A DNA stretch of 64,000 nucleotides from an uncultured Hyphomicrobiales bacterium (GCA_964581505.1 CAZOOR010000006.1:8781-72780); one strand, 5' to 3'. Numbered from the stretch's first letter, positions 4,914 through 63,343 are shown. The notes: generated by a model from the sequence alone, not told the origin. Numbers and translations are program-made.

Positions 4914-7900
4914 AGAAATTATTAATCATATTGTTGTTATATATTTTTACTGTTAGTGCTTATTCACAGCGGGAAGCATATAATTGGTATTTTGGAAACG
5001 GAGCAGGATTATCATTTGCACCGTCTGGTTCTACCGTGCGAACAATTAATAATGGAGCATTAGCATCGCCTGAGGGTTGTGCCGCTATTTCCGATACAAT
5101 AGGCGGGTTGCTTTTCTATACCAACGGGACAACTATTTGGAACAAAAACCATACAGTTATGTTGAACGGTAGCGGCTTGAACGGCAATGGTGATGCCAGC
5201 CAATCTTCAATTATTATTCCCAATCCACAGCATAACGGATTGTATTATGTCTTTACTCTTAATTCCAATACACGTGCCTTTTCCTATTCCACTATTGATA
5301 TTAGACGAGCCGGCGGATTGGGCGCAGTTATTGAAAAAAATCGTGTGTTGATTAGACCTATTACGGAAAAACTAACGGCAACACTTGCGTCTGACGGAGT
5401 AAATTTTTTTGTTACTGTTCACGGTCTTGGAAATAACGTTTTTTATAGTTATTCTATTACAGCTTCGGGTGTTAATACAACTCCATATATTTCTATGACC
5501 GGAAGTTTGCATAACTCGACTACGGCAAATGCAAAGGGACAGATGAAAATTTCTCCTGACGGTAGAACCTTAGCAATCGTAATACCTGATGATGAAGTTT
5601 TTCAAATATTTGACTATAACGCCGGCAATGGAACGCTCACTAACCCATTGACAATTCCTATTGCCGGATATACACCTTACGGCATTGAATTTTCACCTGA
5701 CAGCAAAATACTATATGTATCAACAGGAAACATTCTGTTTCAATATACTATCGAAAGTAAAAATTCTACATATATAATAAACTCGCGTGAGGAAATTGCA
5801 CGAGCAAATGAACGGCTTGCGCAGCTACAACTTGCACCTGACGGCAAGATTTATATTGCTTCACTCGGACAGTATTTTATTGCAAGAATAAGCAAACCCA
5901 ATGAAAACGGAGCAAATGCGGGCTTTAGCCTATCCGCAATTAATTTGAACAGAAGAAGCTCGAACAAAGGACTACCGGCATTCGTACAGAGTTATATGAC
6001 TTATCTTTATACACCGAGCATCATCAATGCTTGCGAAAATGAAGATATTCAACTTCGTTGTACGATTTCCCGTGACGCTGATGCCGCTTCTTTTCGCTGG
6101 TCGGGACCTAAGGGATTTTCCTCGACTGAGCAAAATCCTATGCTTTTGGATTTGAAATTATCACAAAGCGGTTATTATAAGATAAGGGTAATTCTCGGTT
6201 CACTAAGTTTTGAAGATAGCATATTAGTTCATATTACACCGGCTCCGAAATCTAAAATTGTACCAAACGGTTCGACCGAACTATGCTATGGAGACACATT
6301 GAGATTATACGCACTGCCGGATAGTTCGCATTATTCTTATCGCTGGTCAACAGGCGAAAGCACACCAAGTATTCTAATCACTCGCGGCAAAAAATATTAT
6401 TTAACCGTGGAGGCAAATGCTTGTACGACACGTGATTCTATTGAAATAAAATCAGTTCCTGCTTTTACACCGCTTATTATTGTTCTCGGTGATAAAGAAA
6501 TTTGTGAAGGCGATACACTACTACTGCAAGCATATCCGCAAAATTCAGGAAATAAATATTATTGGTCAACAGGCGATACAACAGAAAAAATTCTTATTAC
6601 AAAAGGCGGCAAATATTCGGTTACAATTGAACGAGGAAGTTGCCGCCGTACTGCAAGTACGGAAATCATTAGCCTCGAAAAACCGGCAACACGAATTAAA
6701 GCATTAGGTCCAACCTCATTCTGTACGGGGGATAGTGTTGTTCTTGTAGCTGAACCACAAAAACCTAATTATCTGTATCATTGGTCAACCGGTGAAACTG
6801 CACCTCGTATTGTAGTTAAGCACACCGGGAGAATAACACTAACAACGATGGTTCGTAATGCCTGCAAAACGATTGATACGCTCAATATTACTGCCGGTGA
6901 TGACTTGAAAGTGAAAATCAAAACACCACCACCGCCATTTTGTGAAGGGCGTGAAATCGTTCTAATTGCCGAACCGATATCAAGTTCGTATGAATATCTA
7001 TGGTCAACAGGAGAGACGAACTATGTAATTCGAGTGAAGAAAAGTGGTGTCTATTCTGTTAGAGTGAAGGCTCCGGGAGGTTGCGAAGGTGTTGATACGC
7101 TTAATATAATATTTGCTTCGTTACCAAAAGCAATAATTGCACAGGGCGGTAGCGGTGAAATTTGCTCCGGCGACAGCCTATTGCTCGAAGCAACAAATAT
7201 CCGCCCGGACTATTCCTATTTTTGGTCAACCGGTGATACTACACATACTATTCAGGCTAAAGTTGCCGGTCTTTATTCGCTAATTGTTAGCAATAAAGCC
7301 GGTTGTACAGATACAGCAGTATTCGAGTTAAAGGTAAAACCCGCACCTAAAATCAAAATAATAAAAATACAAGCAGAGACTTTATGCAGGGGTGATTCGG
7401 CAATATTAATTGCGCGGACAAATATCGGAAATAGAATACTTTGGTCAACGGGTGAAACAAAAGACACTATTGTTGTCAAGAAAACCGCTCTCTATACAGT
7501 TAAAGTAACAAATGCCGCTTATTGCTCCGCCTTTGATAGTATATTGGTTATATTCAATCCATATAAGGAACCCGAAATAGAATCGGAAAGAGGTTTTGCC
7601 ATTTGCGAAGGCGAGGAAATAACTCTCAAATCCGTACATAAATATAAAAAATATCTATGGAGTACAGGCGATACAACTGCTTCAATTACAATCAATACAG
7701 CAGGCACATATTATTTAACAATAAGCGATACAAACGGTTGTACTGCAACAACATTAGCAGAAATTAAGAATAGGGAAAACTTAATTGAACATAGTTCCGA
7801 AATTGACTTTGCACAAGTGCTGATTAATACCAAGCAAAGTGATAATGTATTTATTCGCAATATCGGAGTGGATACTCTGATTATTTCGGACATCTTCATC

Positions 7901-12673: not shown

Positions 12674-13768
12674 TTATTTTATTTTTTTGAATAAATCAAT
12701 AATATTCCCATCTAAATCATAGACGGTGAACGTTAATGTATTTCCGTTTAGTTCACAAATAGCATAGTGATGTTTGCGTGATGATTTTTTTGTATATTTC
12801 TTCTTTTTCGGCGAATAAAGCGGGGCGCCACCACCGGCTACCGTCAAATGTTCCACTCCGTCAACGAAATTCCTTTGATAGAAATGCGAATGCCCCGAAA
12901 TCGCAAGTGTTACATTATATTTTTTGAATAATTTGCGTGCAACATTCTTCATTGGTAGATACTCACCATGACCACCGGCAACATAAGCCGATTTGTGGAA
13001 TAAAACTATTTTCCAAGTTTTTTCCGAATTTTTTAGGACTTTTTCCAGAAATTTATACTGTTGCGAACCCTTGTTAATTTTCATTTCATTATTGAGTACT
13101 ACAAAAAGGGCATTTCCGATTTCAAAACTAAAATATTCCTGTTTCTCCGATGGGGAAGCAGGAGCCTGAATAAATGCTTTTGTATTAATATCCCAACCCT
13201 CGTGATTACCGGTAGCATTATAAAATGCAGTGGACTTTGCAAATCTCAATAATGCCGGAACAAAAAATTCTTTTTTCCAAGCAGAGTACGCGGGAGTATT
13301 CGCTATGTCGCCCGTAAGCAATAAAATATCCGTTTTTTTTGAGGAAAGCGAATCAAGCACTCTTGCCCATAAATCAGGATTAGAACGACAATCTCCTGCA
13401 ATGCCGATTTTCAAATGTCCGTCATCAAGCGGTGTGGTAAACGTTTCGAGCTGTGTGTCAATACCGTCCTGTAATACACGATAATAATACTTTGTTCCGG
13501 GTTTTAGATTATCAAGTTCAATCCTATGAACATAGGTAGGTGTCTTCGATGTCGTTTTAAGAAAATAATTCGTATTGTGATAAAGACTTGTGTTTTCATC
13601 ATCACCGTATAGTACACGTACTTCACTTTTTGAATCTGATTCAACAAGCAAATAGACACTAGTTGGTGTCAATGCCTGTAAGTATGGTTTCAGAATAATT
13701 TCCGCTTTCATTGGCAAAATGAAAACAAATACAGATATGACAATAATTAATAATTTCTTTAGATTCAT
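12674..13768 (-). CDS. Calcineurin-like metallophosphoesterase (purple acid phosphatase-like)
   Basis: GDCRSN / LLTGDIAN / GNHE / GHSH metallophosphoesterase motifs after an N-terminal beta-sandwich; signal peptide. Confidence 0.6.
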   Translation of the reverse strand: MNLKKLLIIVISVFVFILPMKAEIILKPYLQALTPTSVYLLVESDSKSEVRVLYGDDENTSLYHNTNYFLKTTSKTPTYVHRIELDNLKPGTKYYYRVLQDGIDTQLETFTTPLDDGHLKIGIAGDCRSNPDLWARVLDSLSSKKTDILLLTGDIANTPAYSAWKKEFFVPALLRFAKSTAFYNATGNHEGWDINTKAFIQAPASPSEKQEYFSFEIGNALFVVLNNEMKINKGSQQYKFLEKVLKNSEKTWKIVLFHKSAYVAGGHGEYLPMKNVARKLFKKYNVTLAISGHSHFYQRNFVDGVEHLTVAGGGAPLYSPKKKKYTKKSSRKHHYAICELNGNTLTFTVYDLDGNIIDLFKKIK

Positions 13769-13774
13769 AATTTC

Positions 13775-15619
13775 CTATTCTCCTTCAATTGTAACTAAAG
13801 CCTCGTCGGCAATATAATCCTTTGTTTTAATAGTCCTCACCCATTTTCTGACAGAACTTATTATTATTACGAATACACTTGATAAAATTGCAACGGTCAG
13901 AATTAAATTCAACAATCCGGGAACAAATTTACCAGCAATGCTCAACATCGGTATATACATTAAAAAGATATTTGAAAAACCGGCATAAATTGTAATAGAA
14001 CCCACAAACACAAGCGGTACTATTGTTACCCAGGCATATTTGAACTTGCCCCGATTAATAATAAACGTAGTTCCTACCGTTAGGGCAATGGTAGCCAAGA
14101 GTTGATTGGCAACACCAAACATAGGCCAAATAGTAGCCACACTTCCTGAATAAATAAAATACGCCCAGATAAATACAACGAATGCACTTGTGATAATTGT
14201 TCCCGGCACCCAATTAGTCTCACCGAGTTTTGAATGGAATTTGCCAAGGACTTCCTGCAAAATAAAGCGTGCTATTCGTGTGCCGGCATCAATCACCGTA
14301 AGAATAAACAAAGCCTCGAACATAATAGCAAAATGATACCAATATGACATTAATCCCGAAAGCCCGGGAATTGATGAAAATATTTGTGCCATACCGACAG
14401 CCAAAGAGACTGCGCCACCCGTTCTGCCGGCAAGTTGCTCACCTACCTCTCTACTTAGCATCTCGAAGTTTGTCTGAGTAAATCCCATAGCTTTCAATTG
14501 CGGAATAAGTTCGGTGAACTTATCAACAGGTACATTAATTTGGAAATAATCAAGCGGGAACATTGAAGTTGCCGCAATCAAAGCAAGAATACTGACCAAA
14601 CCCTCGACCAACATAGCTCCGAAACCTACAAATTTAATATGAGATTCCTTGTCAAGCATCTTTGGCGATGTACCGGAACTGACTACCGAGTGCCAGCCCG
14701 AAATAGCCCCACATGCTATTGTTATAAACAAATACGGGAAAAGCGGTCCTTTGATTATCGGTCCTCCGCCGTGAATAAAATCCGTGAAAGCCGGCATATG
14801 CAAATCCGGTGCAACTACAATCACCCCTATTGCCAATAAAAAAATCACCCCGATTTTCATAATCGAACTTAAATAATCACGTGGCGACAACAATATCCAA
14901 ACGGGTAATACAGATGCAAAGAAACCGTAAACAGCAAGAGCAATTGTTAATGTTTCCCTTGATAACAGGAAATATGGTTCTAGAAATGAACCCGGTACAT
15001 CTTTGCCGAAAATTACTGCGAGCGTAAGCATAATTACACCCATAACGGTTGCTTCAACCGTTTTTCCCGGACGGAACTTGAACATCCACCAACCCATAAA
15101 GAAAGCAATCGGTATAGTGCAAAAAATAGTAAATGCCCCCCAAGAACTCTCGGCAAGTGCATTAACTACAACAATACCGAGACCTGCCAAAGCAACCACC
15201 ATAATAATAAATATGGCAATTGATGCAGTATAGCCGGCTGTCTTGCCTATTTCCTTTGAAGCAATTTCTGCTAAAGACTTACCTTCGTGTCTGATTGAGG
15301 CTACAAAAATCACATAATCATGAACGGCGCCTGCCATTACCGAACCCAGCACCATCCACACAAATCCGGGGAAATAGCCGAACTGTGCCGCTAATACAGG
15401 TCCCACAAGTGGTCCGGCTCCGGCAATAGCCGCAAAATGATGACCGAACAATACCCATTTATTCATTGGATAATAATTGTGCCTGTCATAAAATTTATGT
15501 GCGGGGGTCTGGATTAAATCGTTGAGTACGACAACTTTTGTAGCAATAAAAGCGTAATAATATCTGTAAGCCAAAGCAAATATGGCAACAGCAATAATAA
15601 GAAGAGGCATTGCATTCAT
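13775..15619 (-). CDS. cstA: Carbon starvation protein CstA (peptide/pyruvate transporter family)
   Basis: Polytopic membrane protein with a CstA N-terminal signature ([43 protein letters not shown]). Confidence 0.85.
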
Positions 15620-17472: not shown

Positions 17473-18546
17473 ATGAGCGATATTAAAATACGCAAGATAG
17501 ATAAAACAAAAATTAACGATATTGATTGGAGTAATCTCGGTTTCGGAAAATACTTTTCCGACTATATGTTCATTGCCAATTTTAAAAACGGAACTTGGGA
17601 CAATGGTGAAATTATGCCTTATGCTCCTCTTGAAATTGAACCCGGAATGTGTACACTGCACTATGGTCAAACAATATTCGAGGGATTGAAGGCATATCGT
17701 GATATTAATGGCGGTGCTAATTTATTCAGACCCGATATGAATGCGAAGCGTCTGAACAGGTCGGCTAAACAATTATGTATTCCCCAATATGACGTTCAGA
17801 AATTGATTGATGCTATGACGGAACTTGTGAAGATTGACAAAAATTGGATACCGAAGGAACGCGGGCATTCATTATATTTGCGTCCCGTTATGTTTGGTTC
17901 CAGTAATTTCTTGGGTGTGCATCCATCAGATGATTATATGTTAATTGTAATGACTTCCCCCGTTGCTTCATATTATCCCGAAGGTTTAAATCCAGTTAAA
18001 ATATTAGTAATGGATAAATTTGTCCGTGCAGTACGCGGAGGATTGGGCAGTGCTAAAACAGCCGCTAACTATGCCGCATCACTCTATGGCGGCAAGGTTG
18101 CCAAGGAACAAGGCTTTTCGCAAGTTCTTTGGCTTGACGGCATCAATCACGAATATATTGATGAGGTCGGCGCAATGAATATTATGTTTGTTATCGATGG
18201 TGAAATTTACACACCTTCACTCGAACAAGGCTCTATACTTGCCGGCGTAACACGCGATTCCGTAATCACACTTGCAAAGGAATGGGGTATTAAAGTCAAT
18301 GAAAGACCCATCAAAATTGCCGAAGTTTTCGAGGCACATCAAGCCGGCAAATTGCAGGAAGCATTTGGAACAGGTACAGCCGCAGTTATTTCACCGGTCG
18401 GTATGTTCAAATATAATGACAATGAAATTGTTGTCAATAATATGGAAATAGGTTCACTTGCTCAGAAGTTCTACGATACAATTACCGGTATTCAATACGG
18501 CGAAATCGAAGACAAGCATGGCTGGAATGTGCATATTGATTTGTAA
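17473..18546 (+). CDS. ilvE: Branched-chain amino acid aminotransferase
   Basis: PLP fold IV signatures (LHYGQTIFEGLKAYR, ...YLRP..., GTGTAAVISPVG). Confidence 0.85.
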   Translation: MSDIKIRKIDKTKINDIDWSNLGFGKYFSDYMFIANFKNGTWDNGEIMPYAPLEIEPGMCTLHYGQTIFEGLKAYRDINGGANLFRPDMNAKRLNRSAKQLCIPQYDVQKLIDAMTELVKIDKNWIPKERGHSLYLRPVMFGSSNFLGVHPSDDYMLIVMTSPVASYYPEGLNPVKILVMDKFVRAVRGGLGSAKTAANYAASLYGGKVAKEQGFSQVLWLDGINHEYIDEVGAMNIMFVIDGEIYTPSLEQGSILAGVTRDSVITLAKEWGIKVNERPIKIAEVFEAHQAGKLQEAFGTGTAAVISPVGMFKYNDNEIVVNNMEIGSLAQKFYDTITGIQYGEIEDKHGWNVHIDL

Positions 18547-18572
18547 TTAATAAAATACAACATCAACTATAC

Positions 18573-18608
18573 CGAGACCGGCATATTTGTCGGTCTCTTT
18601 TTTTTATT
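18573..18608 (+). terminator. Rho-independent terminator after ilvE
   Basis: GAGACCGGCATATTTGTCGGTCTC hairpin followed by T8. Confidence 0.55.
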
Positions 18609-18924
18609 TGCTAACCGGATTTTATTTAAAAAGAACAAGTCCGGTCATTAAAGATAACAACCGGACAAGTTATTGGGGATTTTATATTCTGATACAAACA
18701 TATAATCGAAGATTCATCATTTTTATTTTAATAATATTTATAATTTATAAATATTTCTCTTATGATACTATTCTAATACTTTATGCATTCCAAATAATTC
18801 AAAAATCAAAAAAAATGAACAGGCATTGCAATAAATCAACATTTTAATATTTCCTAGAAATTAAATAAAATAATTGGAAAATACAGGAATTTAGCGTATT
18901 TTTGTAATCCTTTTTATTAGGGGA

Positions 18925-18998
18925 CGGCGTGTAGCGCAGCCCGGTAGCGCACTACTTTGGGGTAGTAGGGGTCGTGGGTTCAAATCCCGCCACGCCGA
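18925..18998 (+). tRNA. tRNA-Pro (anticodon GGG)
   Basis: Hand-folded cloverleaf: acceptor CGGCGTG/CACGCCG with the C1:G72 pair typical of tRNA-Pro, D arm GCGC-AGCCCGGTA-GCGC, anticodon arm CTACT-TTGGGGT-AGTAG, T arm GTGGG-TTCAAAT-CCCGC, discriminator A; 74 nt. Confidence 0.85.
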
Positions 18999-19040
18999 CA
19001 AGATAAGCTAATTATTCCCATATAGTTAGCATTGCTCTTA

Positions 19041-19085
19041 AAAGCATTATTTTGCAGTCATCAGCAAAATAATGCTTTTATTTTC
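19041..19085 (+). terminator. Strong hairpin terminator downstream of tRNA-Pro
   Basis: Perfect 15-bp stem AAAGCATTATTTTGC/GCAAAATAATGCTTT with 8-nt loop, followed by a T-rich run. Confidence 0.55.
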
Positions 19086-19150
19086 TGAATACATCAATAT
19101 CCAATCACCACATGCTTTAAGCAAGTCGGAGAAAATAGTTATAATAAAAT

Positions 19151-19233
19151 AACCGCATCCTTCAGGGTGCGGTTTTGTCTTTCGGCTGTTTCTCCCTCGC
19201 CCATTTGTAGAGGGCTGGGGTGAGAGTGCTGTT
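19151..19233 (+). repeat. Dispersed intergenic repeat, copy A (hairpin AACCGCATCC-TTCA-GGGTGCGGTT + about 50-nt core)
   Basis: Near-identical hairpin and related core (..CTCGCCC.TTTG.AGAGGGCTGGGGTGAG..GCTGTT) recur at 19390, 41494, 61518 (core inverted) and 61722 (inverted). Confidence 0.6.
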
Positions 19234-19389
19234 CCATTTAAAATAATTTTAAAACCGTTTTCTTGTCGCCACATCTCAATTCCATTAAATTGCAAACGAG
19301 TGTTCGCTCACTCCACGTTCTTTGAAAAGTAATAGGTATATGTAGAAGAAATGTAGAAAGTGTAGAAAAGTGTAGAAAAAATTACTACA

Positions 19390-19476
19390 AAACCGCATCC
19401 TTCAGGGTGCGGTTTTGTGTTCTTGCTGTTCGCTCACTCGCTCTTTGGAAAAGGGCTGGGGTGAGTCGGCTGTTTG
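19390..19476 (+). repeat. Dispersed intergenic repeat, copy B
   Basis: Same hairpin (AACCGCATCCTTCAGGGTGCGGTT) followed by CGCTCACTCGCTCTTTGGAAAAGGGCTGGGGTGAGTCGGCTGTT. Confidence 0.6.
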
Positions 19477-19509
19477 GAAATTGCCACGCCGCCGAGCAAG
19501 AACAATAAA

Positions 19510-20502
19510 TCAGAGTTTGGATAATTCGTATTCGTAAGCGTTTTCTACATTTGTTGCTTGTTGCAAAGTGCTGACATACTGTCCGCAGTTCGAGCCTATT
19601 TTATTTTCTTCCCATTCGCCTATGCTCAAAATAACACCGTAACCTGCGGCTTCGGCGGCTTTTACTATTTCATTATGGTTGTTCTTTTCGGTTATAAGCG
19701 ATTTGATATTGTTTTTCTCTGCTTTATATGTAGGGTTAATGGGGGTAATCTTCAAAAGAAATATTTCGGGAGCGAAATACTTCAACAGTTGCTTAGGTTC
19801 GAAGAGTGAATCCTGCGAAAGAGCAAAGTTTAGAGTAATTTTCTTTCCTCCTTTATCATAAAAGCGTTCGGAATATTTCGCAATTTTCTCAAAGCTCCAT
19901 TTCTTGACGGGCAGTAATTCATCTCTCTGCTTTGTATCTGACGAATGCAATGAAAATTGCAATTGGAATGTATTACGATAGAGTTCTTTTTTCAATTGCA
20001 AAAGTTCCTCGAAGAAATTATCTGTACCTGCCGGTGCTATTGTAGAAAGGGAAGGTAGAAACAAGCGATAATCATACAAAGCGGGTATGTTGCGAAGCAA
20101 TTCCAATACCGCCGGATTGAACGAAGGTTCACCCATTCTGGCAAATTGAATTTTGAATTTATTGCTATCAATATAACCGGACGGAAAGCGGATGTTAATC
20201 AAATAATCAATCTGAAATTTTAATTCTTCATAAGACAATTTGCCTTCATATCTGCCGCCGGCATCGCAGAAAGTGCATTCGACAGGACAACCGAAAAGAG
20301 TAGAAATGATTAATACCCATTTGTCGCGTCTCGTTAGCGGCGGCTGAGTGGATTCGACGAACTCAAACATTTTTCCTGTTTCGTTCTCCGCCACAAAGAC
20401 CGTTGCTATGTCGTTATCCTTTGTTCTTGCGATTACTTTCATTTTCTTTTTCGATGCTTTGAACAATTTCCATTGCGGCACGCAGACCGTCTCCTGCCGC
20501 AA
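19510..20502 (-). CDS. Radical SAM domain protein (function unknown)
   Basis: CxxxCxxC motif GCPVECTFCDAGG near the N-terminus; about 300-330 aa depending on start (internal Met candidates MKVIAR / MFEFVE); last gene of a three-gene overlapping minus-strand operon. Confidence 0.55.
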   Translation of the reverse strand: MRQETVCVPQWKLFKASKKKMKVIARTKDNDIATVFVAENETGKMFEFVESTQPPLTRRDKWVLIISTLFGCPVECTFCDAGGRYEGKLSYEELKFQIDYLINIRFPSGYIDSNKFKIQFARMGEPSFNPAVLELLRNIPALYDYRLFLPSLSTIAPAGTDNFFEELLQLKKELYRNTFQLQFSLHSSDTKQRDELLPVKKWSFEKIAKYSERFYDKGGKKITLNFALSQDSLFEPKQLLKYFAPEIFLLKITPINPTYKAEKNNIKSLITEKNNHNEIVKAAEAAGYGVILSIGEWEENKIGSNCGQYVSTLQQATNVENAYEYELSKL

Positions 20503-23461: not shown

Positions 23462-23551
23462 TATGTTTTCTTTTACAAACAATAAGAGTTTAAGAGATTA
23501 TTTGTTATTATTTTGTAAATTGTTATTTGGAAAAAATTAAACGGAATATTT

Positions 23552-24190
23552 ATGAATATACCGTCACCAATATTCCTTTATCGAATTATCCATATAAATA
23601 ATTTGGAGAAGATATTGTATGAGGGAAAGCTCATTTGTCCTGCCGGTATTGAAAAAGATAATAACTATATTTCAATCGGTGATAATACATTAATAAAAAG
23701 CAGAAGAAATAAAACAATAGATATATCACCTTTTGGGGATTTTTCCGATTATATTTCTTTTTATTTTGGGTATAGGTCGCCGATGCTGTATAATATTCAA
23801 AATGGATATAATAATGTAACAAAAAGAAAACCTGAAGAAATTATTTATCTTGTTACATCATTTGATGAAATAAAGAGAAGAAATACAAAATATGTATTTA
23901 CAGATGGACATGGTTATCATCATTTATCACAATTTTTTAATGTTGAAAACGATTTAAATAATGTAGATTGGAAGGTTGCGAAATCAAACTTTTGGTTTGA
24001 TAATGAAGATGACCCTGACAGAAAAAGAAGGAAGCAAGCGGAATTTTTAGTTCATAAAGAATTGGATTTATCGGCTATTAAACAAATTGCTGCATTTAAT
24101 AAGAAAGCCGTTGATAAAGTTACCGAATTACTACAAAAAAATAATATTAACATTAAAATATCAATCAAATCGGAATGGTATTATGATTAA
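23552..24190 (+). CDS. darT: DarT-like DNA ADP-ribosyltransferase toxin (DUF4433)
   Basis: 212 aa; N-terminal IFLYRIIHINNLEKILYEG (DUF4433 hallmark), central FYFGYRSPMLY, C-terminal KQAEFLVH with candidate catalytic Glu; immediately followed, with overlapping start, by a macrodomain gene. Confidence 0.7.
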   Translation: MNIPSPIFLYRIIHINNLEKILYEGKLICPAGIEKDNNYISIGDNTLIKSRRNKTIDISPFGDFSDYISFYFGYRSPMLYNIQNGYNNVTKRKPEEIIYLVTSFDEIKRRNTKYVFTDGHGYHHLSQFFNVENDLNNVDWKVAKSNFWFDNEDDPDRKRRKQAEFLVHKELDLSAIKQIAAFNKKAVDKVTELLQKNNINIKISIKSEWYYD

Positions 24191-25217
24191 GTATAAAAAA
24201 GGAAATATCATTAATGAACCCGTTGAGGCGCTTGTAAATACCGTTAATACTGTTGGGATTATGGGCAAAGGTATTGCCCTTGCTTTCAAGAAAGCATTTC
24301 CCGATAATTACAAAATTTATAAGAATATTTGTGATAAAAATGAATTCGATATCGGTGATATTCTGATAACCGAAACAGGTTCACTTTTGCCAAAATACAT
24401 TATTAATTTCCCGACCAAAAGGCATTGGCGGAATCGTTCAGAAATGGAATATATTGAAAAAGGTATGAAAGAACTTATCAAGAAGATAAATGAATATGGT
24501 ATTCAATCAATTGCAATACCGCCCTTGGGTTGTGGCAACGGTGGGTTAAAATGGAATGACGTAATACAAATTATTCTTGATGAACTTGCTACCCTCAATG
24601 ATGATATTGATATTGTCATTTTTGAACCGGGGTTTAATGAACAAACCATGCCGACCAAAAAACATATCGAACTCACTCCCGCAAGAGCTATGTTTTTATC
24701 TGCTTTGAATAAGTATCGAATTTTGGGTTATTCGGTTAATTTGCTTGTTGCTCAAAAAATTGCTTATTTTTTGCAGCAGCTGAACGAACCGCTCAATCTC
24801 GATTTTGAGAAAGGTTTTTACGGTCCTTATTCAAACAGATTACAACATCTACTTAAATATCTAAACGGCTATTATTTGGTTTTCGATAATGAATCTACCA
24901 AACCCGATAGTATAATTACATTGAAACGTCAGGAAGAAGTTTCTCATTTTGTAAAATCCTCTTTATCCGATGAACAAAAATCCAGATTAGAAGTATTACA
25001 ACAATTAATTGAGGGCTTTGAATCACCATACGGTTTGGAATTGCTTGCAACTGTTGATTTCATTATCCAACATAACAAAATATCCGATATAAACGATATT
25101 GAAAATATTATTGCCGATTGGACAAAAAGAAAAAGAGAAATAATGAAACCATATCATATTGAGAAAGCATATCGGCGTTTACAAGAATTATATAACAGTA
25201 ATACTTTGCTTGTTTGA
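24183..25217 (+). CDS. darG: DarG-like macrodomain antitoxin (ADP-ribosyl-DNA hydrolase + C-terminal DarT-binding domain)
   Basis: Internal in-frame ATG at 24183 overlaps the darT stop (TTATGATTAA). N-terminal macro domain (NTVNTVGIMGKGIALAFKKAFP..., IAIPPLGCGNGGL), about 345 aa. ORF track start 24087 is inside darT. Confidence 0.7.
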   Translation: MIKYKKGNIINEPVEALVNTVNTVGIMGKGIALAFKKAFPDNYKIYKNICDKNEFDIGDILITETGSLLPKYIINFPTKRHWRNRSEMEYIEKGMKELIKKINEYGIQSIAIPPLGCGNGGLKWNDVIQIILDELATLNDDIDIVIFEPGFNEQTMPTKKHIELTPARAMFLSALNKYRILGYSVNLLVAQKIAYFLQQLNEPLNLDFEKGFYGPYSNRLQHLLKYLNGYYLVFDNESTKPDSIITLKRQEEVSHFVKSSLSDEQKSRLEVLQQLIEGFESPYGLELLATVDFIIQHNKISDINDIENIIADWTKRKREIMKPYHIEKAYRRLQELYNSNTLLV

Positions 25218-25255
25218 AATTTTATTATCCTTAACAATAAATTACGGAAATATTT

Positions 25256-26827
25256 ATGAAATTAATTACTTCTCTATTTTTATCAATGATACTTATTGCT
25301 ACTGTTACGTATTCGCAGCATAAGAATGTTACAGTTTTCCCTCAGAGTACTCGTCCGAACGAGCCGGCGATTGCAATAGATATAAATAACCCTCAGCTTA
25401 TGGTGGCGGGTTCTAATTTAAATTTGGTGGCATATTCACGTAATGCAGGGAAAACATGGAAATATAAGAGGCTCACATCAAGTTATGGGGTTTGGGGAGA
25501 CCCAATGCTCCTCGTTGATACAAATTCCAATTTCTATTTCTTCCATCTATCGCAATACCCCGGTCCCAAGTGGCTGGACAGAATTGTTTGTCAAAAATCT
25601 TTGGATATGGGCAAAACTTGGAATGACGGCTCGTTCACTGAATTAGACGGCAAGATGCATGATAAGGAATGGGCGGTAGTTGATAGGAGAACTAATATAA
25701 TCTATATGACTTGGACGGTTTTCGATAAATATCAAGGCGGTGCAAAGGACAGTTCAAATATTTTATTTACCAAATCTACGGATAATGGCACTACTTGGTC
25801 GAAACCGATGAGAATAAATGACCGTGGCGGAGATTGTAAAGATGACGATAACACGGTCGAAGGTGCTGTACCTGCTATTGGACCGAACGGCGAAATATAT
25901 GTCGTTTGGTCGGGACATAATAATCTTTACTTTGATAAATCAACAGATGGTGGTAATACTTGGTTAAAAAACGATATGATTATTGCAAAGCAATATGGTG
26001 GCTGGAAATATGATATTCCCGGATTAGACCGTTGTAACGGGCTTCCGATTATTGATTGCGATTTGAGTAAGGGTGAGCATAACGGTACTTTGTATATTAA
26101 TTATTCCGACCAAAAATTTGGTCTTAATGATACTGATGTTTGGTTGCTCAAATCTACTGACGGCGGCGAAACATGGTCTAAGAGAATTCGTGTAAATGAC
26201 GATAAAGCAGGGAAACAACAGTTTTTAAATTGGTTCACTATTGACCAAACAAACGGTTACTTGTATTTCGTTTTTTATGACAGACGCAATCATCCCGATA
26301 AAATGACAGATGTATATATGGCTGTCTCCAAAGATGGTGGTAAAACATTCGATAATTTCAAAATCAGCGAGGAAGCATTTGCTCCAACTAAATCGGCGTT
26401 TTTTGGAGATTATACAAATATCGCCGCTACCAATGGTACGATACGACCAATATGGTCGCGAATGGACACAGGCAGAACGACAATACTAACGGCATTGATT
26501 ATTCCTGATTCCATTGGAGTTTCAGTCGAAGAAGAATCGCCAATATATACGGACTTCGACCCTGTGCTTTACCAGAACTATCCCAATCCGTTTTCGGGAC
26601 GCACTTATGTGTCTTTCAAATTACGCGAATCCTCACTTGTCAGTTTGTTCTTGTATAACTCGCGCGGACAGGAAGTCGCATCAATTCTTAATAACAAACA
26701 ATACCCGGCAGGAAAATTTGTTGAAACTATAAATGGAAGGAAACTTAATCTGAAAAGCGGCGTATATTATTATGTATTGTGTACCAATAGCAGTACAATT
26801 ACAAGAAAGATGATAATTATGGAATAA
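25256..26827 (+). CDS. BNR/Asp-box repeat protein (sialidase/glycosidase-like beta-propeller) with T9SS C-terminal domain
   Basis: Five SxDxGxTW Asp-boxes (SLDMGKTW, STDNGTTW, STDGGNTW, STDGGETW, SKDGGKTF); signal peptide; C-terminal YQNYPNPFSGRTYVSFKL... CTD. Confidence 0.55.
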   Translation: MKLITSLFLSMILIATVTYSQHKNVTVFPQSTRPNEPAIAIDINNPQLMVAGSNLNLVAYSRNAGKTWKYKRLTSSYGVWGDPMLLVDTNSNFYFFHLSQYPGPKWLDRIVCQKSLDMGKTWNDGSFTELDGKMHDKEWAVVDRRTNIIYMTWTVFDKYQGGAKDSSNILFTKSTDNGTTWSKPMRINDRGGDCKDDDNTVEGAVPAIGPNGEIYVVWSGHNNLYFDKSTDGGNTWLKNDMIIAKQYGGWKYDIPGLDRCNGLPIIDCDLSKGEHNGTLYINYSDQKFGLNDTDVWLLKSTDGGETWSKRIRVNDDKAGKQQFLNWFTIDQTNGYLYFVFYDRRNHPDKMTDVYMAVSKDGGKTFDNFKISEEAFAPTKSAFFGDYTNIAATNGTIRPIWSRMDTGRTTILTALIIPDSIGVSVEEESPIYTDFDPVLYQNYPNPFSGRTYVSFKLRESSLVSLFLYNSRGQEVASILNNKQYPAGKFVETINGRKLNLKSGVYYYVLCTNSSTITRKMIIME

Positions 26828-32267: not shown

Positions 32268-32900
32268 TTAATTGCTTCGCATTGTAAAAAGCAAAACGAC
32301 CGTAATCACTGCGGCACTTACAACAGCAACCGGTTGCACAATGTCTTTCCAGAATGAAGACGGTGGTTCGGGAATTTTCGCTTTTGCAAATTTATAAGTA
32401 CTTTCATTGTACAGTACGGCATCTTCACGTGAAATTTTATCTATATTTGTTTCTATATCGAAATTGAGGGGGAGTATTCTATTGTCCTTGAGTAGTAGAG
32501 TAGCTGATAAATCACAATCAATATATCTTAGCAATGAATCATTGTCGTTCTCATCATTAGCGTATTTCACAAGAATTGAATTGCTAAAATCAAGATAAGG
32601 TTTTTTGCTTGTTCCATTATCGCTGACAAAGAGAGCGATATTGGCATTTGCGGCGCGAGAGAGCAATAATGAATTAAAAAATCGTTCAGCTTCTATTGTT
32701 TTAATGTTAGAATATACGGTATCGCAGTTATTATGTATTAATTGAGTAATAATGCTGTCAGCCATTGCGACAAGATCCTGTTTAATAACTTTAATATTTG
32801 TCAAAGCCTCTCTCTGCTCAGCCACAGAAAAAGATGAAGTAAAAGACAATAACAAGAAAGAAAAAAATAAAAGCAAACTATTTTTCGGAAGATATTTCAT
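32268..32900 (-). CDS. Hypothetical secreted protein with C-terminal membrane anchor
   Basis: Signal peptide and C-terminal hydrophobic helix only. Confidence 0.25.
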   Translation of the reverse strand: MKYLPKNSLLLFFSFLLLSFTSSFSVAEQREALTNIKVIKQDLVAMADSIITQLIHNNCDTVYSNIKTIEAERFFNSLLLSRAANANIALFVSDNGTSKKPYLDFSNSILVKYANDENDNDSLLRYIDCDLSATLLLKDNRILPLNFDIETNIDKISREDAVLYNESTYKFAKAKIPEPPSSFWKDIVQPVAVVSAAVITVVLLFTMRSN

Positions 32901-43700: not shown

Positions 43701-44915
43701 ATGATAGTTAAACGACAAATATATTATGATAGAATAAAAACCTTTATTGACAAACCGATAATTAAGATAATTACCGGTATGCGAAGAGTTGGCAAAAGTT
43801 ATTTCTTAAAACAAATAATTTCCGAGTTAATAAGCTCGGAAATAGATAAGTCGCAAATAATATTCATAGATAAAGAAGACATAAGATTTGATTCCATTCA
43901 GAATTATAAGCAGTTGAATGAATATATTGAGTCAAATTATTCTTCAATAAATGGAAAAAAGTATTTATTCATTGATGAAGTTCAAGAGATAGAACAATGG
44001 GAAAAATTAATAGTTTCGTTAAATAAAAGTGAGAAATATGATATATATCTCAGTGGTAGTAATGCTCAATTATTATCATCAGAGCTTGCTACTTTGATTG
44101 CAGGTCGATATATTGAAATCAATATTTATCCACTTTCTTTTTCAGAATTTATAGAATTTCAAGGAGAAAATTTTGTTTCTTATCAAAATTCATTTGAATT
44201 ATACATCAGATATGGCGGACTACCAGGAATATTTCATTTAGAACAGACAGACGAGACCGTTTTCCAATATCTTAACGGTATATACAGTAGTATTTTGGTG
44301 AAAGATATTATTGCAAGATATAGGATTAGGAATGTTTCGCTATTAGAAAAAATCCTTAATTTTATTCTTGATAATATTGGTAATCTATTAACGGCAAATA
44401 ATATTGCTAAATATTTGAAGTCGCAAAAGAATGTCATTTATTCCGATACTATTCAGAATTATTTAAATTATTTTCTAAAAACTTATATCGTACATAAGGT
44501 TCAGAGATATGATATAAAAGGTAAAAAACTTTTAGAAATCAATGAAAAATACTATGTCAATGACCTGGGATTGCGTCATAGTATTTTGCAGTTTCGCAAT
44601 GACGATATTGCTCAAATATTAGAAAACATTGTCTATATGGAATTATTGGTTCGAGGTTATAAAGTAAATGTTGGCAATCATGCAGGCAAAGAAATTGATT
44701 TTATTGCTACAAAACAAAATGAAAAAATTTACATTCAAGTATCATATTTATTAGCCTCCGAAAAAACTATAGAGCGAGAATTTACGCCATTATTAAAAAT
44801 TGAAGATAATTATCCAAAATTTGTTTTAAGTATGGATACAAATATTATAGCTAATGATAATAAAGGAATAAAACGAATAAATATTATAGATTTCTTGATA
44901 GATTCTGTTAGATAG
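43701..44915 (+). CDS. AAA-family ATPase, DUF4143-type (ATP-binding protein)
   Basis: P-loop IITGMRRVGKSY, Walker B LFIDEVQ, C-terminal DUF4143-like region. Confidence 0.6.
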   Translation: MIVKRQIYYDRIKTFIDKPIIKIITGMRRVGKSYFLKQIISELISSEIDKSQIIFIDKEDIRFDSIQNYKQLNEYIESNYSSINGKKYLFIDEVQEIEQWEKLIVSLNKSEKYDIYLSGSNAQLLSSELATLIAGRYIEINIYPLSFSEFIEFQGENFVSYQNSFELYIRYGGLPGIFHLEQTDETVFQYLNGIYSSILVKDIIARYRIRNVSLLEKILNFILDNIGNLLTANNIAKYLKSQKNVIYSDTIQNYLNYFLKTYIVHKVQRYDIKGKKLLEINEKYYVNDLGLRHSILQFRNDDIAQILENIVYMELLVRGYKVNVGNHAGKEIDFIATKQNEKIYIQVSYLLASEKTIEREFTPLLKIEDNYPKFVLSMDTNIIANDNKGIKRINIIDFLIDSVR

Positions 44916-59467: not shown

Positions 59468-59992
59468 ATGAAAAACAATTCATCAATTAATAATATTATA
59501 TCTAAAATTCTTTTTCTAATTTATATAGTCATACTGATGCAATTGGCAGGATGTTATTCATTTACGGGTAGTTCTGTACCTGAGCATTTGAAAACATTGC
59601 AAATTGCGGCTGTGAGTGATAACAGCGGGTATGGCAATCCGAAATATAAAGACAAATTGTCTATGTTGCTCTTTGATAAATTTAAGAATGATAATTCCTT
59701 TGCATTAGTGGAACGAAGGGGTAATGCGCGGCTTAATGTTGTCATTGCTTCGATACGTGATGAAGCGACTGTGATTAGTCCGGGCGAGTTGGAAAAAGAA
59801 AGAAAGATGACTTTATCTTGTAGCGTGGAATATTATGATGCGGTTAAGAAAAAGTCTATTTGGAAGAAATCATTCTCGAATTACGGGGTTTACGAAATCA
59901 GCAATGCAGTTGCCGGACGCGAAGAAGCCGTTTCCTCTGCACTGGAAAAAATATCCGATGATATTTTATTAGCTGTCGTTTCGGGTTGGTAA
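59468..59992 (+). CDS. Lipoprotein, LptE-like (tentative)
   Basis: Lipobox LAGCYS; about 170 aa; size and context (near kdsB/LPS genes) only. Confidence 0.25.
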   Translation: MKNNSSINNIISKILFLIYIVILMQLAGCYSFTGSSVPEHLKTLQIAAVSDNSGYGNPKYKDKLSMLLFDKFKNDNSFALVERRGNARLNVVIASIRDEATVISPGELEKERKMTLSCSVEYYDAVKKKSIWKKSFSNYGVYEISNAVAGREEAVSSALEKISDDILLAVVSGW

Positions 59993-61928: not shown

Positions 61929-62762
61929 GTGTTATATGAGAGAAGCAATATGAAAGTAACATTATTAAATAAAACACTATGGAAACAGTATTTTACTGTT
62001 TTAGGAATAATTGGAGTTATAACAAGTTTTGTTACAATATTTGTTACAATTGATGATAAGTATAAATTATGTTCTGGGATAATTTTTTTAATATTTTTAA
62101 TTCTTGTTTTTCTTTACTTGCTATATATGGCAAACCATTTAGATCGAATTAAATTAAAAATTAATGGCTTACTCATAAACATTTTCTATGGAGACATATT
62201 TGAAGCACAAGGTCTTAAAGTAATTCCTTTTAATGAATATTTCGACACTGTTGTTGATAATAAAATTATTGCAGAGAAAACATTGAATGGTAAATTTATT
62301 AAAAAGTATTATTCTAATGTTAATGAACTTGATACTCAAATAGAAACAGCGTTATCTGATAAGCCATTTACAACTAATAATGCAAGAGCATTAGGGAAAA
62401 AGAAAAAATATGAATTAGGAACAACGATTGAAATTGAGAATGAATATCTTTTAACAGCATTCACTCACTTTGATTCTAAAAATAAAGCATACCTTTCAAA
62501 AATCGAATATTTACTATGTTTAGACAAATTATGGAAAGAGTTGAATAAAATATACGCTCAACGAGATATTAATATTCCATTACTTGGTTCTGGAATTTCT
62601 AGAATTGGAAACAACTTGAAACTTCAAGATTATTTAAATATTATTCTCACTTCAATAAAACTATCAGATTTAGATAATGCTTATAATACAGCAATAAATA
62701 TAATATTACACGAAAGTGTAAAAAATGAAATTAATTTATTTGAAATAAAATCAAAATTTTAA
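61929..62762 (+). CDS. Two-TM + Macro-domain protein, type II Thoeris ThsA-like effector
   Basis: Two hydrophobic helices (YFTVLGIIGVITSFVTIFVTI; LCSGIIFLIFLILVFLYLLYMA) then a Macro-like domain: INIFYGDIFEAQGLKVIPFNEYFDT, LLTAFTHFDSK, INIPLLGSGISRIGN (compare DarG IAIPPLGCGNGGL). Alternative start at Met 61950. Very AT-rich. Confidence 0.5.
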   Translation: MLYERSNMKVTLLNKTLWKQYFTVLGIIGVITSFVTIFVTIDDKYKLCSGIIFLIFLILVFLYLLYMANHLDRIKLKINGLLINIFYGDIFEAQGLKVIPFNEYFDTVVDNKIIAEKTLNGKFIKKYYSNVNELDTQIETALSDKPFTTNNARALGKKKKYELGTTIEIENEYLLTAFTHFDSKNKAYLSKIEYLLCLDKLWKELNKIYAQRDINIPLLGSGISRIGNNLKLQDYLNIILTSIKLSDLDNAYNTAINIILHESVKNEINLFEIKSKF

Positions 62763-62773
62763 AGGAGACTATT

Positions 62774-63343
62774 ATGGCAAACAGAACGGGAAATTACAGT
62801 ACTTTCTATGTAAAAGAACCTTTTAAAGAAACAAATTTAGGAGCTAACATAGCAAAGGATTTTGTGTATTATAACACATTGAGAATGTGGAAAGGCAAAG
62901 ATTCGTCCTTCCCATTTATTGACTCTCATATGAAAAATTATAATGTTAGAGATGGAAGTGATTGGGAAACTACTTTAAAACCAAGATTAAGAGCAAGATT
63001 AAGTGCATCAAAAAATATTATCTTGTTTTTAAGTTCGATAACTAAAAGTTCAAGAGCATTAAGGGAAGAAATAGATTATGGGATTAATATAAAAGGACTT
63101 CCTGTTATTGTTATTTACCCTGAATACAATAGTATAAGTAATATTATAAATTGTTCATCTGGAACAATTAAGAAAAAAATAAAAGATCTTTGGGATAAGT
63201 TGCCAATATTTAGAAACTCTATGGATAGTGTGCCTACTCTTCATATTCCAATGAAAAAAGAAATAATCACAAAAGCATTAAAAGAGCCTAAATTTAAAGT
63301 TGCAACAAAGGGAGAAGCAGGAATATATTATTACCCTTGTTAA
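62774..63343 (+). CDS. TIR-like protein, ThsB-type (DUF1863/MTH538-like)
   Basis: 189 aa; aligns by eye to the Bacillus cereus ThsB pattern: YSTFYV versus VFFSFHY; FIDSHM...LKPRL...NIILFLSSITKSSRALREEIDYGINIKGLPVIVIY versus VFDASLW...LKRLI...VTCVLIGSQTFNRRWVRYEIMKSIEKGNKIIGIHI. Confidence 0.45.
   Translation: MANRTGNYSTFYVKEPFKETNLGANIAKDFVYYNTLRMWKGKDSSFPFIDSHMKNYNVRDGSDWETTLKPRLRARLSASKNIILFLSSITKSSRALREEIDYGINIKGLPVIVIYPEYNSISNIINCSSGTIKKKIKDLWDKLPIFRNSMDSVPTLHIPMKKEIITKALKEPKFKVATKGEAGIYYYPC

Follow-up and report, generated by a model that had tools for sequence, protein, structure and literature searches.

The locus considered here raises the question of whether two adjacent AT-rich genes belong to a known toxin-antitoxin system and, if so, whether their position next to the gene rmuC carries any meaning. 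The genes lie in a 64,000-nucleotide stretch of DNA (GCA_964581505.1, CAZOOR010000006.1:8781-72780), referred to here as the window, and were proposed in a sequence-only reading to encode a DNA ADP-ribosyltransferase toxin (DarT) and a macrodomain antitoxin (DarG). The pair corresponds to a DarTG module in its gene structure, in the families of the two proteins, in the conserved residues, and in fold, and there is very little doubt that the two genes constitute an intact canonical DarTG2 toxin-antitoxin module, probably horizontally acquired, standing alone between housekeeping genes. The evidence for this assignment is given first, followed by the organization of the locus, its neighborhood, and its base composition; coordinates are collected in Table 1.

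Identity of the toxin and antitoxin

The product of darT matches Pfam PF14487 with 197 bits (cut-off 22.5; E=3.6e-58) over model positions 1-201 of 201, the NCBIfam equivalog NF048013 (toxin_DarT) with 220 bits (cut-off 150) over positions 1-204 of 204, and the PADLOC DarT model with E=4.1e-62. Among proteins in the PDB it matches, by sequence, DarT from Thermus sp. 2.9 (7omv; E=1.2e-29) and DarT from Mycobacterium tuberculosis (Mtb; 7yk3_A, 1.9e-13). The sequence-only reading had placed this 212-amino acid (aa) open reading frame (ORF) in DUF4433/DarT, which the Pfam and NCBIfam matches support, and the three motifs that it quoted are present: YRIIHINNLEKIL at residues 10-22, FYFGYRSPMLY at residues 70-80, and QAEFLVH at residues 162-168.

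The downstream protein matches the PADLOC DarG model with E=1.2e-119 (model positions 1-327 of 329), NCBIfam NF048014 (antitoxin_DarG) with 392 bits (cut-off 250; positions 1-338 of 338), and Pfam Macro with E=4.3e-29. The family matches of both proteins are far beyond chance. The amino-terminal region of DarG resembles the solved macrodomains of Thermus aquaticus (Taq; 5m31, 5.9e-51) and Mtb (5m3i, 1.9e-43), and the match to the Taq structure settles the predicted macrodomain fold. In the PTKRHW segment, K79 corresponds to the catalytic lysine of Taq, K80, and W82 to the stacking tryptophan, W83; the roles of both have been described (PMC9967889, PMC11543638), and both are invariant in seven DarG sequences. 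The C-terminal region matches chain 7yk3_B, the C-terminal domain of Mtb DarG in the crystal of the DarTG complex (E=2.3e-17), and is strongly conserved among the six partner proteins compared, for example in EGFESPYGLELLATVD. The earlier description of this protein as a macrodomain antitoxin is thus upheld, except for its length, which had been given as 345 aa; the gene has 345 codons including the stop, and the protein has 344 aa.

Table 1. Features of the darTG locus and other features of the window.
Feature	Position (nt)	Strand	Remarks
darT	23552..24190	+	Predicted 212-aa DNA ADP-ribosyltransferase toxin, DarT2 (thymidine) type; intact ORF
Codon of catalytic E164 of DarT	24041-24043	+	
darG	24183..25217	+	344-aa antitoxin; intact; stop codon 25215-25217
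Codon of K79 of DarG	24417-24419	+	
Predicted ADP-ribosylglycohydrolase macrodomain of DarG	24183-24638	+	Residues 1-152; PDB 5m31 match
Predicted DarT-binding C-terminal domain of DarG	24735-25166	+	Residues 185-328; Mtb 7yk3_B match
darT/darG overlap	24183..24190	+	8 nt, ATGATTAA; darG start 24183-24185, darT stop TAA 24188-24190
AT-rich spacer	23462..23551	+	90 nt, GC 17.8%; between rmuC stop and darT start
Sigma-70-like match	23472-23501		9 of 12 (consensus match only)
Inverted repeat, 8 bp	23543-23576	+	GGAATATT / AATATTCC; flanks darT start codon
Direct repeat, left copy	23541..23556	+	ACGGAATATTTATGAA; ends in darT start codon
Direct repeat, right copy	25244..25260	+	ACGGAAATATTTATGAA; ends in start codon (25256) of BNR gene
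AT-rich stretch without long ORFs	18546-19510		About 960 nt
tRNA-Pro(GGG)	18925-18999		Only tRNA in window
AAA_14 + DUF4143 ATPase	43701-44915	+	404 aa
Thoeris-like pair	61929-63343	+	ThsA, 277 aa; ThsB, 189 aa

Catalytic residues, fold, and subtype

Catalytic roles have been assigned to R51, Y71, M78, H119, and E160 of Thermus DarT (PMC9967889, PMC11543638). The equivalents in the present protein are R51, Y71, M78, H120, and E164, and all five are invariant across 20 members of the DarT family. Y71 and M78 align exactly with their Thermus namesakes, and E164 falls opposite the alanine that replaces E160 (E160A) in the crystallized construct of Thermus sp. 2.9 DarT; the suggestion that QAEFLVH contains the catalytic glutamate is therefore borne out. 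For these comparisons the numbering of the 7omv chain was taken as native +1, as deduced from the positions of H13, Y71, M78, H119, and E160A.

The AlphaFold model of DarT has a predicted local distance difference test (pLDDT) score of 89 and a predicted template modeling (pTM) score of 0.88. In a Foldseek comparison, the model matches Thermus DarT, a DarT2 (7omy, 7omv), with a template modeling (TM) score of 0.90-0.92, a root-mean-square deviation (rmsd) of 1.6-2.0 A, and E about 1e-23, and Mtb DarT with TM 0.85 and rmsd 2.4 A. The same comparison recovers the guanine-specific DarT1 from Escherichia coli C7 (8baq; E=5.6e-07), and in view of this common DarT fold it could be asked whether the toxin is of the DarT1 type and not the thymidine-specific DarT2 type. 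The two types differ in the base-holding residue, which is Asn in DarT1 and His in DarT2, and in the partner, which is a NADAR protein in the former and a macrodomain protein in the latter (PMC11543638). The residue at this position is His (H120), and the partner protein has no match to the NADAR domain, the Macro and DarG models matching instead. The structural match to DarT1 is also much looser (TM 0.61, rmsd 6.1 A) than that to DarT2 (TM 0.90, rmsd 2.0 A), and a sequence search with E up to 10 recovers no DarT1 chain. Because of the His at the base-holding position and the macrodomain partner, the module is classed as thymidine-type DarTG2; the pairing that characterizes DarTG1, a NADAR (YbiA-like) antitoxin with a DarT1-like toxin, is not what is found here, and a guanine-specific toxin is hardly conceivable.

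Junction, start codons, and upstream region

The sequence-only reading had described an overlapping ATGA junction between the two genes. The ATG at 24183 is indeed in frame and overlaps the end of darT, but the overlap is of 8 nt (ATGATTAA, with the stop TAA) and not of 4 nt: darT ends with TAT GAT TAA, darG starts with ATG ATT AAG, and the TGA within the overlap is out of the darT frame. The overlap suggests coupled translation of the two genes. In relatives, the junction is TAT TAT TAA A ATG ATA AAA, with a 1-nt gap, or has a small overlap or a longer spacer. The corresponding letters of the window, at 24179-24195, are TAT T-ATG-ATT AAG (compare relatives L076 at about 1695-1734 and L077 at about 6617-6656), which looks like the loss of 6 nt, joining the final Tyr codon to the ATG of darG. 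Such a loss, as judged from three relatives, would have created both the 8-nt overlap and an extra C-terminal Asp, giving a DarT of 212 aa where 211 aa would be expected.

A longer form of darG, a 376-aa ORF from TTG at 24087, had been doubted in the sequence-only reading and is too long a call. The 344-aa form is preferred because the DarG models of PADLOC and NCBIfam align from its residue 1-2 onward, because six relatives begin M-[IF]-[KRH] at the same place, and because public gene calls contain exactly the 344-aa protein.

The AT-rich spacer upstream of darT probably holds the module's own promoter. It contains a single sigma-70-like match, and the promoter and terminator scan gave nothing beyond shuffled expectation, with no terminator predicted after rmuC; darTG may also be co-transcribed with rmuC. 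The inverted repeat around the darT start codon corresponds to an RNA hairpin in which GGAAUAUU pairs with AAUAUUCC (-12.4 kcal/mol, z = -2.2) and which would sequester the AUG together with the preceding GGAA. As a conserved regulatory feature this hairpin was rejected, there being no equivalent in six relatives. An Rfam scan of the window returned only tRNA-Pro and nothing near darTG.

Genomic context

Upstream of darTG are rmuC (Pfam RmuC, 1e-72) and genes for an isochorismatase-family protein and a pyridine-nucleotide oxidoreductase, with tRNA-Pro, an aminotransferase, and CstA farther away. Downstream are genes for a BNR protein with a type IX secretion system (T9SS) sorting domain, a CarboxypepD_reg/DUF5686 protein, an epimerase, and an OmpA-family protein. 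The position beside rmuC had struck the sequence-only reading as unexpected. Species-representative genomes were scanned with RmuC, which gave 74 loci (best identity 66%); darT or darG lies within 8 kb of rmuC in none of these 74 loci from other genomes, and rmuC lies beside DarTG in none of seven DarTG relatives. The linkage is not recurrent on either count and was rejected as a context for darTG; the rmuC neighborhood shows no sign of meaning.

It could still be argued that RmuC and DarTG function together as a unit, RmuC for instance processing DNA that is ADP-ribosylated or stalled, as the genes are on the same strand and are separated by a 90-nt gap with no predicted terminator. However, the GC content of rmuC is host-like (38%) while that of darT is 27%, the adjacency is seen nowhere else among the loci examined, and RmuC has only weak, coiled-coil-type matches to defense models; such a unit is very improbable. 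Equally little credence is given to the idea that placement after rmuC without a terminator reflects real functional coupling, in which RmuC would resolve DarT-adducted DNA, or a domesticated DarTG that would regulate replication or recombination, as next to dnaB in Mtb.

In all seven relatives examined the order is darT and then darG, and DarG has 339-344 aa. The neighbors are ZorA, AbiEii, and TOTE in one relative; an OLD-family nuclease and an integrase in another; and a reverse transcriptase and HigB, BrnT, pYEATS, or mobile-looking DNA rich in helix-turn-helix genes in others. In relative L077 (Polaribacter sp. M15 contig JBTLRD010000012.1, 3057-11515), polA is directly upstream and mutS is two genes downstream. 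Apart from the module in the window, it is the one case encountered in which darTG adjoins genes of DNA metabolism.

These neighborhoods bear on whether the same enzymes might serve as a regulator of growth or replication and not in phage defense. In Mtb, DarT marks single-stranded DNA at the origin, slowing replication (PMC12170906). A comparable role would fit a darTG that is solitary among housekeeping genes and adjoins a DNA-recombination gene, and it would fit the Polaribacter copy, which is flanked by polA and, at a distance of two genes, mutS. Most relatives, however, sit with defense, toxin-antitoxin, or mobile genes, the adjacency to rmuC does not recur (0 of 74 rmuC loci and 0 of 7 DarTG relatives), and the low GC content described below suggests recent acquisition and not an integrated regulator. 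A regulatory role is accordingly considered unlikely.

The host had been described as a member of the FCB group. This is consistent with the predicted T9SS sorting domains in neighboring genes, and the closest RmuC and DarT relatives are from Bacteroidota genomes and metagenome-assembled genomes. Many genes in the window have Shine-Dalgarno-like motifs, GGAG/AGGA, 6-10 nt before the ATG (e.g., 12674..13768, 13775..15619, 59468..59992, and 62774..63343). Classical Bacteroidia do not typically have such motifs. The host may be from another lineage of the FCB group, its nearest RmuC relatives being only 66% identical. Farther upstream, the only tRNA of the window is contained in an AT-rich stretch without long ORFs. 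The adjoining ORF (19510..20502, starting with TTG) shares 89 nt with the gene that follows and was therefore probably called from too far upstream.

Base composition and acquisition

The sequence-only reading had contrasted the AT-rich module with its flanking genes, and the measured values agree: GC content is 27.4% in darT (20.7% at third codon positions) and 32.9% in darG, compared with 38.1% in rmuC, 39.0% in the BNR gene, and 36.5% in the window as a whole. The GC content of darTG is in the lowest 4.5% of equal-sized windows. A similar contrast is present in relatives, for example L078, with 32% in the module and 48% in the flanks. The low GC content suggests recent acquisition of darTG. 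Homologues of DarT are found on 79 plasmid records from many genera, while the phage collection gave one distant DarT-like match, from Thermus phage phiMa (31%).

A low-GC toxin-antitoxin pair without partner genes, with homologues common on plasmids, might also be a selfish addiction module, or a module heading to decay, that persists because cells die on losing it and not because it benefits the host. Against this, both ORFs are intact, every family-invariant residue is kept, and the defense activity of the family has been shown experimentally in other species; we regard a purely selfish or decaying module as improbable.

The only stretches of the window as AT-rich as darTG are two other islets, both of defense type. 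One, with the highest AT content in the window (GC 0.24-0.28), encodes a Thoeris-like pair: ThsA has a Macro-type domain (Pfam ThsA_Macro, 1e-56; PADLOC ThsA1, 1.2e-89), and ThsB is a TIR protein (Pfam, 9.8e-25; PADLOC ThsB1, 3.5e-72). The other (GC about 0.26-0.28) encodes an AAA_14 + DUF4143 ATPase that matches the PADLOC candidate defense family PDC-S01 with E=7.5e-154.

A direct repeat, ACGGAA(A)TATTTATGAA (unit also written ACGGAAATATTTATG), brackets the cassette at the start of darT and the start of the next gene. Within the 64 kb, the shorter form CGGAA(A)TATTTATG is found at these two gene starts and nowhere else. Among 741 pairs of gene starts, this one scores in the top 4 and is not statistically exceptional; a comparably good match is located upstream of the gene at 32268..32900, where an 11-mer of the repeat recurs. 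On these grounds, a target-site duplication is too weak to claim. Since relatives do not have the motif upstream of darT, the repeat looks like host rather than cassette sequence, and it may represent an insertion junction, or chance.

Several observations weigh against the view of darTG as an intact and acquired DarTG2 module. The program phmmer aligns R51 of Thermus to R52 and not to R51, there being Arg at both positions; a gapless alignment from the DYxxFYF anchor, together with conservation in the family, points to R51 as the probable counterpart. Three residues of Thermus DarT that contact nicotinamide adenine dinucleotide (NAD) are not kept, with H13 replaced by R11, T15 by I13, and H65 by S65; R11 is invariant within the DarT clade, and Ser is also present at the H65 position in Mtb DarT. 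The immediate neighbors of darTG are housekeeping genes and form no defense island. At darTG there is neither an integrase nor a tRNA junction, and no convincing target-site duplication, to mark an insertion. Nor was an empty site found in a close relative, because the nearest available RmuC sequences reach no more than 66% identity and lack synteny, the 74 RmuC loci sharing no flanking genes.

Proposed mechanism and role

By analogy with the characterized systems, DarT would use NAD+ to modify thymidine at N3 with a single ADP-ribose within a short single-stranded DNA motif. In the predicted active site, H120 would grip the thymine, R51 and Y71 would polarize NAD+, M78 would stabilize the oxocarbenium intermediate, and R51 with E164 would complete catalysis. 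The resulting adduct would block replication, and the protein is expected to be toxic on its own. DarG, translated from the overlapping frame, would neutralize the toxin in two ways: the macrodomain, through K79, would hydrolyze the thymidine-ADP-ribose bond, and the C-terminal domain would bind DarT directly and inhibit it. A phage that upset the balance between DarG and DarT would allow DarT to modify viral and host DNA, and phage replication would stop.

The likely role of this copy is thus abortive-infection defense. Phage defense by DarTG systems has been documented (PMC11543638, PMC10760071, PMC11825919), in agreement with the anti-phage activity that the sequence-only reading had attributed to this class of toxin-antitoxin module, and in several relatives darTG sits among defense or mobile genes.

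Comparison with known systems

This copy of DarTG is an ordinary example of a system that is already well described. The exact DarT and DarG proteins are present in NCBI, JGI, ENA, and Logan, and there are at least 1861 homologues at E<=1e-10, the closest with 64% identity; the equivalog models whose cut-offs both proteins exceed are those applied in automatic naming. The locus yields one more intact DarTG2 module, from an uncultured, AT-rich bacterium of the FCB group, which matters little beyond annotation and does not challenge current understanding. Together with the Thoeris and PDC-S01 islets, it gives a picture of small AT-rich defense cassettes scattered over 64 kb and not of one large island. 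With about 31% identity to a structurally characterized enzyme, DarT could be of use in surveys of DarT2 motif specificity or in the search for tools for editing by DNA ADP-ribosylation.

The DarTG2 systems of T. aquaticus and Thermus sp. 2.9 (7omv-7on0; 5m31, 5m3e) have the same gene order and the same domain layout. Thermus DarT can be aligned over the full length with 31% identity (E=1.2e-29, TM 0.90-0.92), and R51, Y71, M78, H119, and E160 as well as the catalytic Lys and Trp of DarG all have counterparts. The present DarT differs in the residues at the positions of H13 (R), T15 (I), and H65 (S) and in a 3-residue insertion before the catalytic Glu; unlike the Thermus genes, darT and darG here overlap by 8 nt, and the host is mesophile-like, AT-rich, and of the FCB group. 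The Mtb system (Rv0059/Rv0060; 7yk3, 5m3i) is similar in the fold of DarT (TM 0.85) and in both the macrodomain and the C-terminal domain of DarG, and it shares the Ser at the position of Thermus H65, although DarT identity is only 23%. In contrast to the present module, the Mtb genes lie with dnaB, the system is a regulator of replication and growth, and the antitoxin is essential.

DarTG1 from E. coli C7 (8baq) has a distantly related ADP-ribosyltransferase fold and the same toxin-antitoxin logic of targeting a DNA base, but the toxin is specific for guanine and holds the base with Asn where DarT2 has His, and the antitoxin is a NADAR protein. Uncharacterized DarTG pairs are present in Bacteroidota and Balneolaceae, such as the pair from Polaribacter sp. 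M15, whose DarT is annotated as such by NCBI. These pairs have 50-64% identity in DarT and 54-65% in DarG, with lengths of 211-215 and 339-344 aa and the same gene order as here; many of them are in defense islands, while the present module stands by itself between rmuC and a BNR protein secreted by the T9SS.

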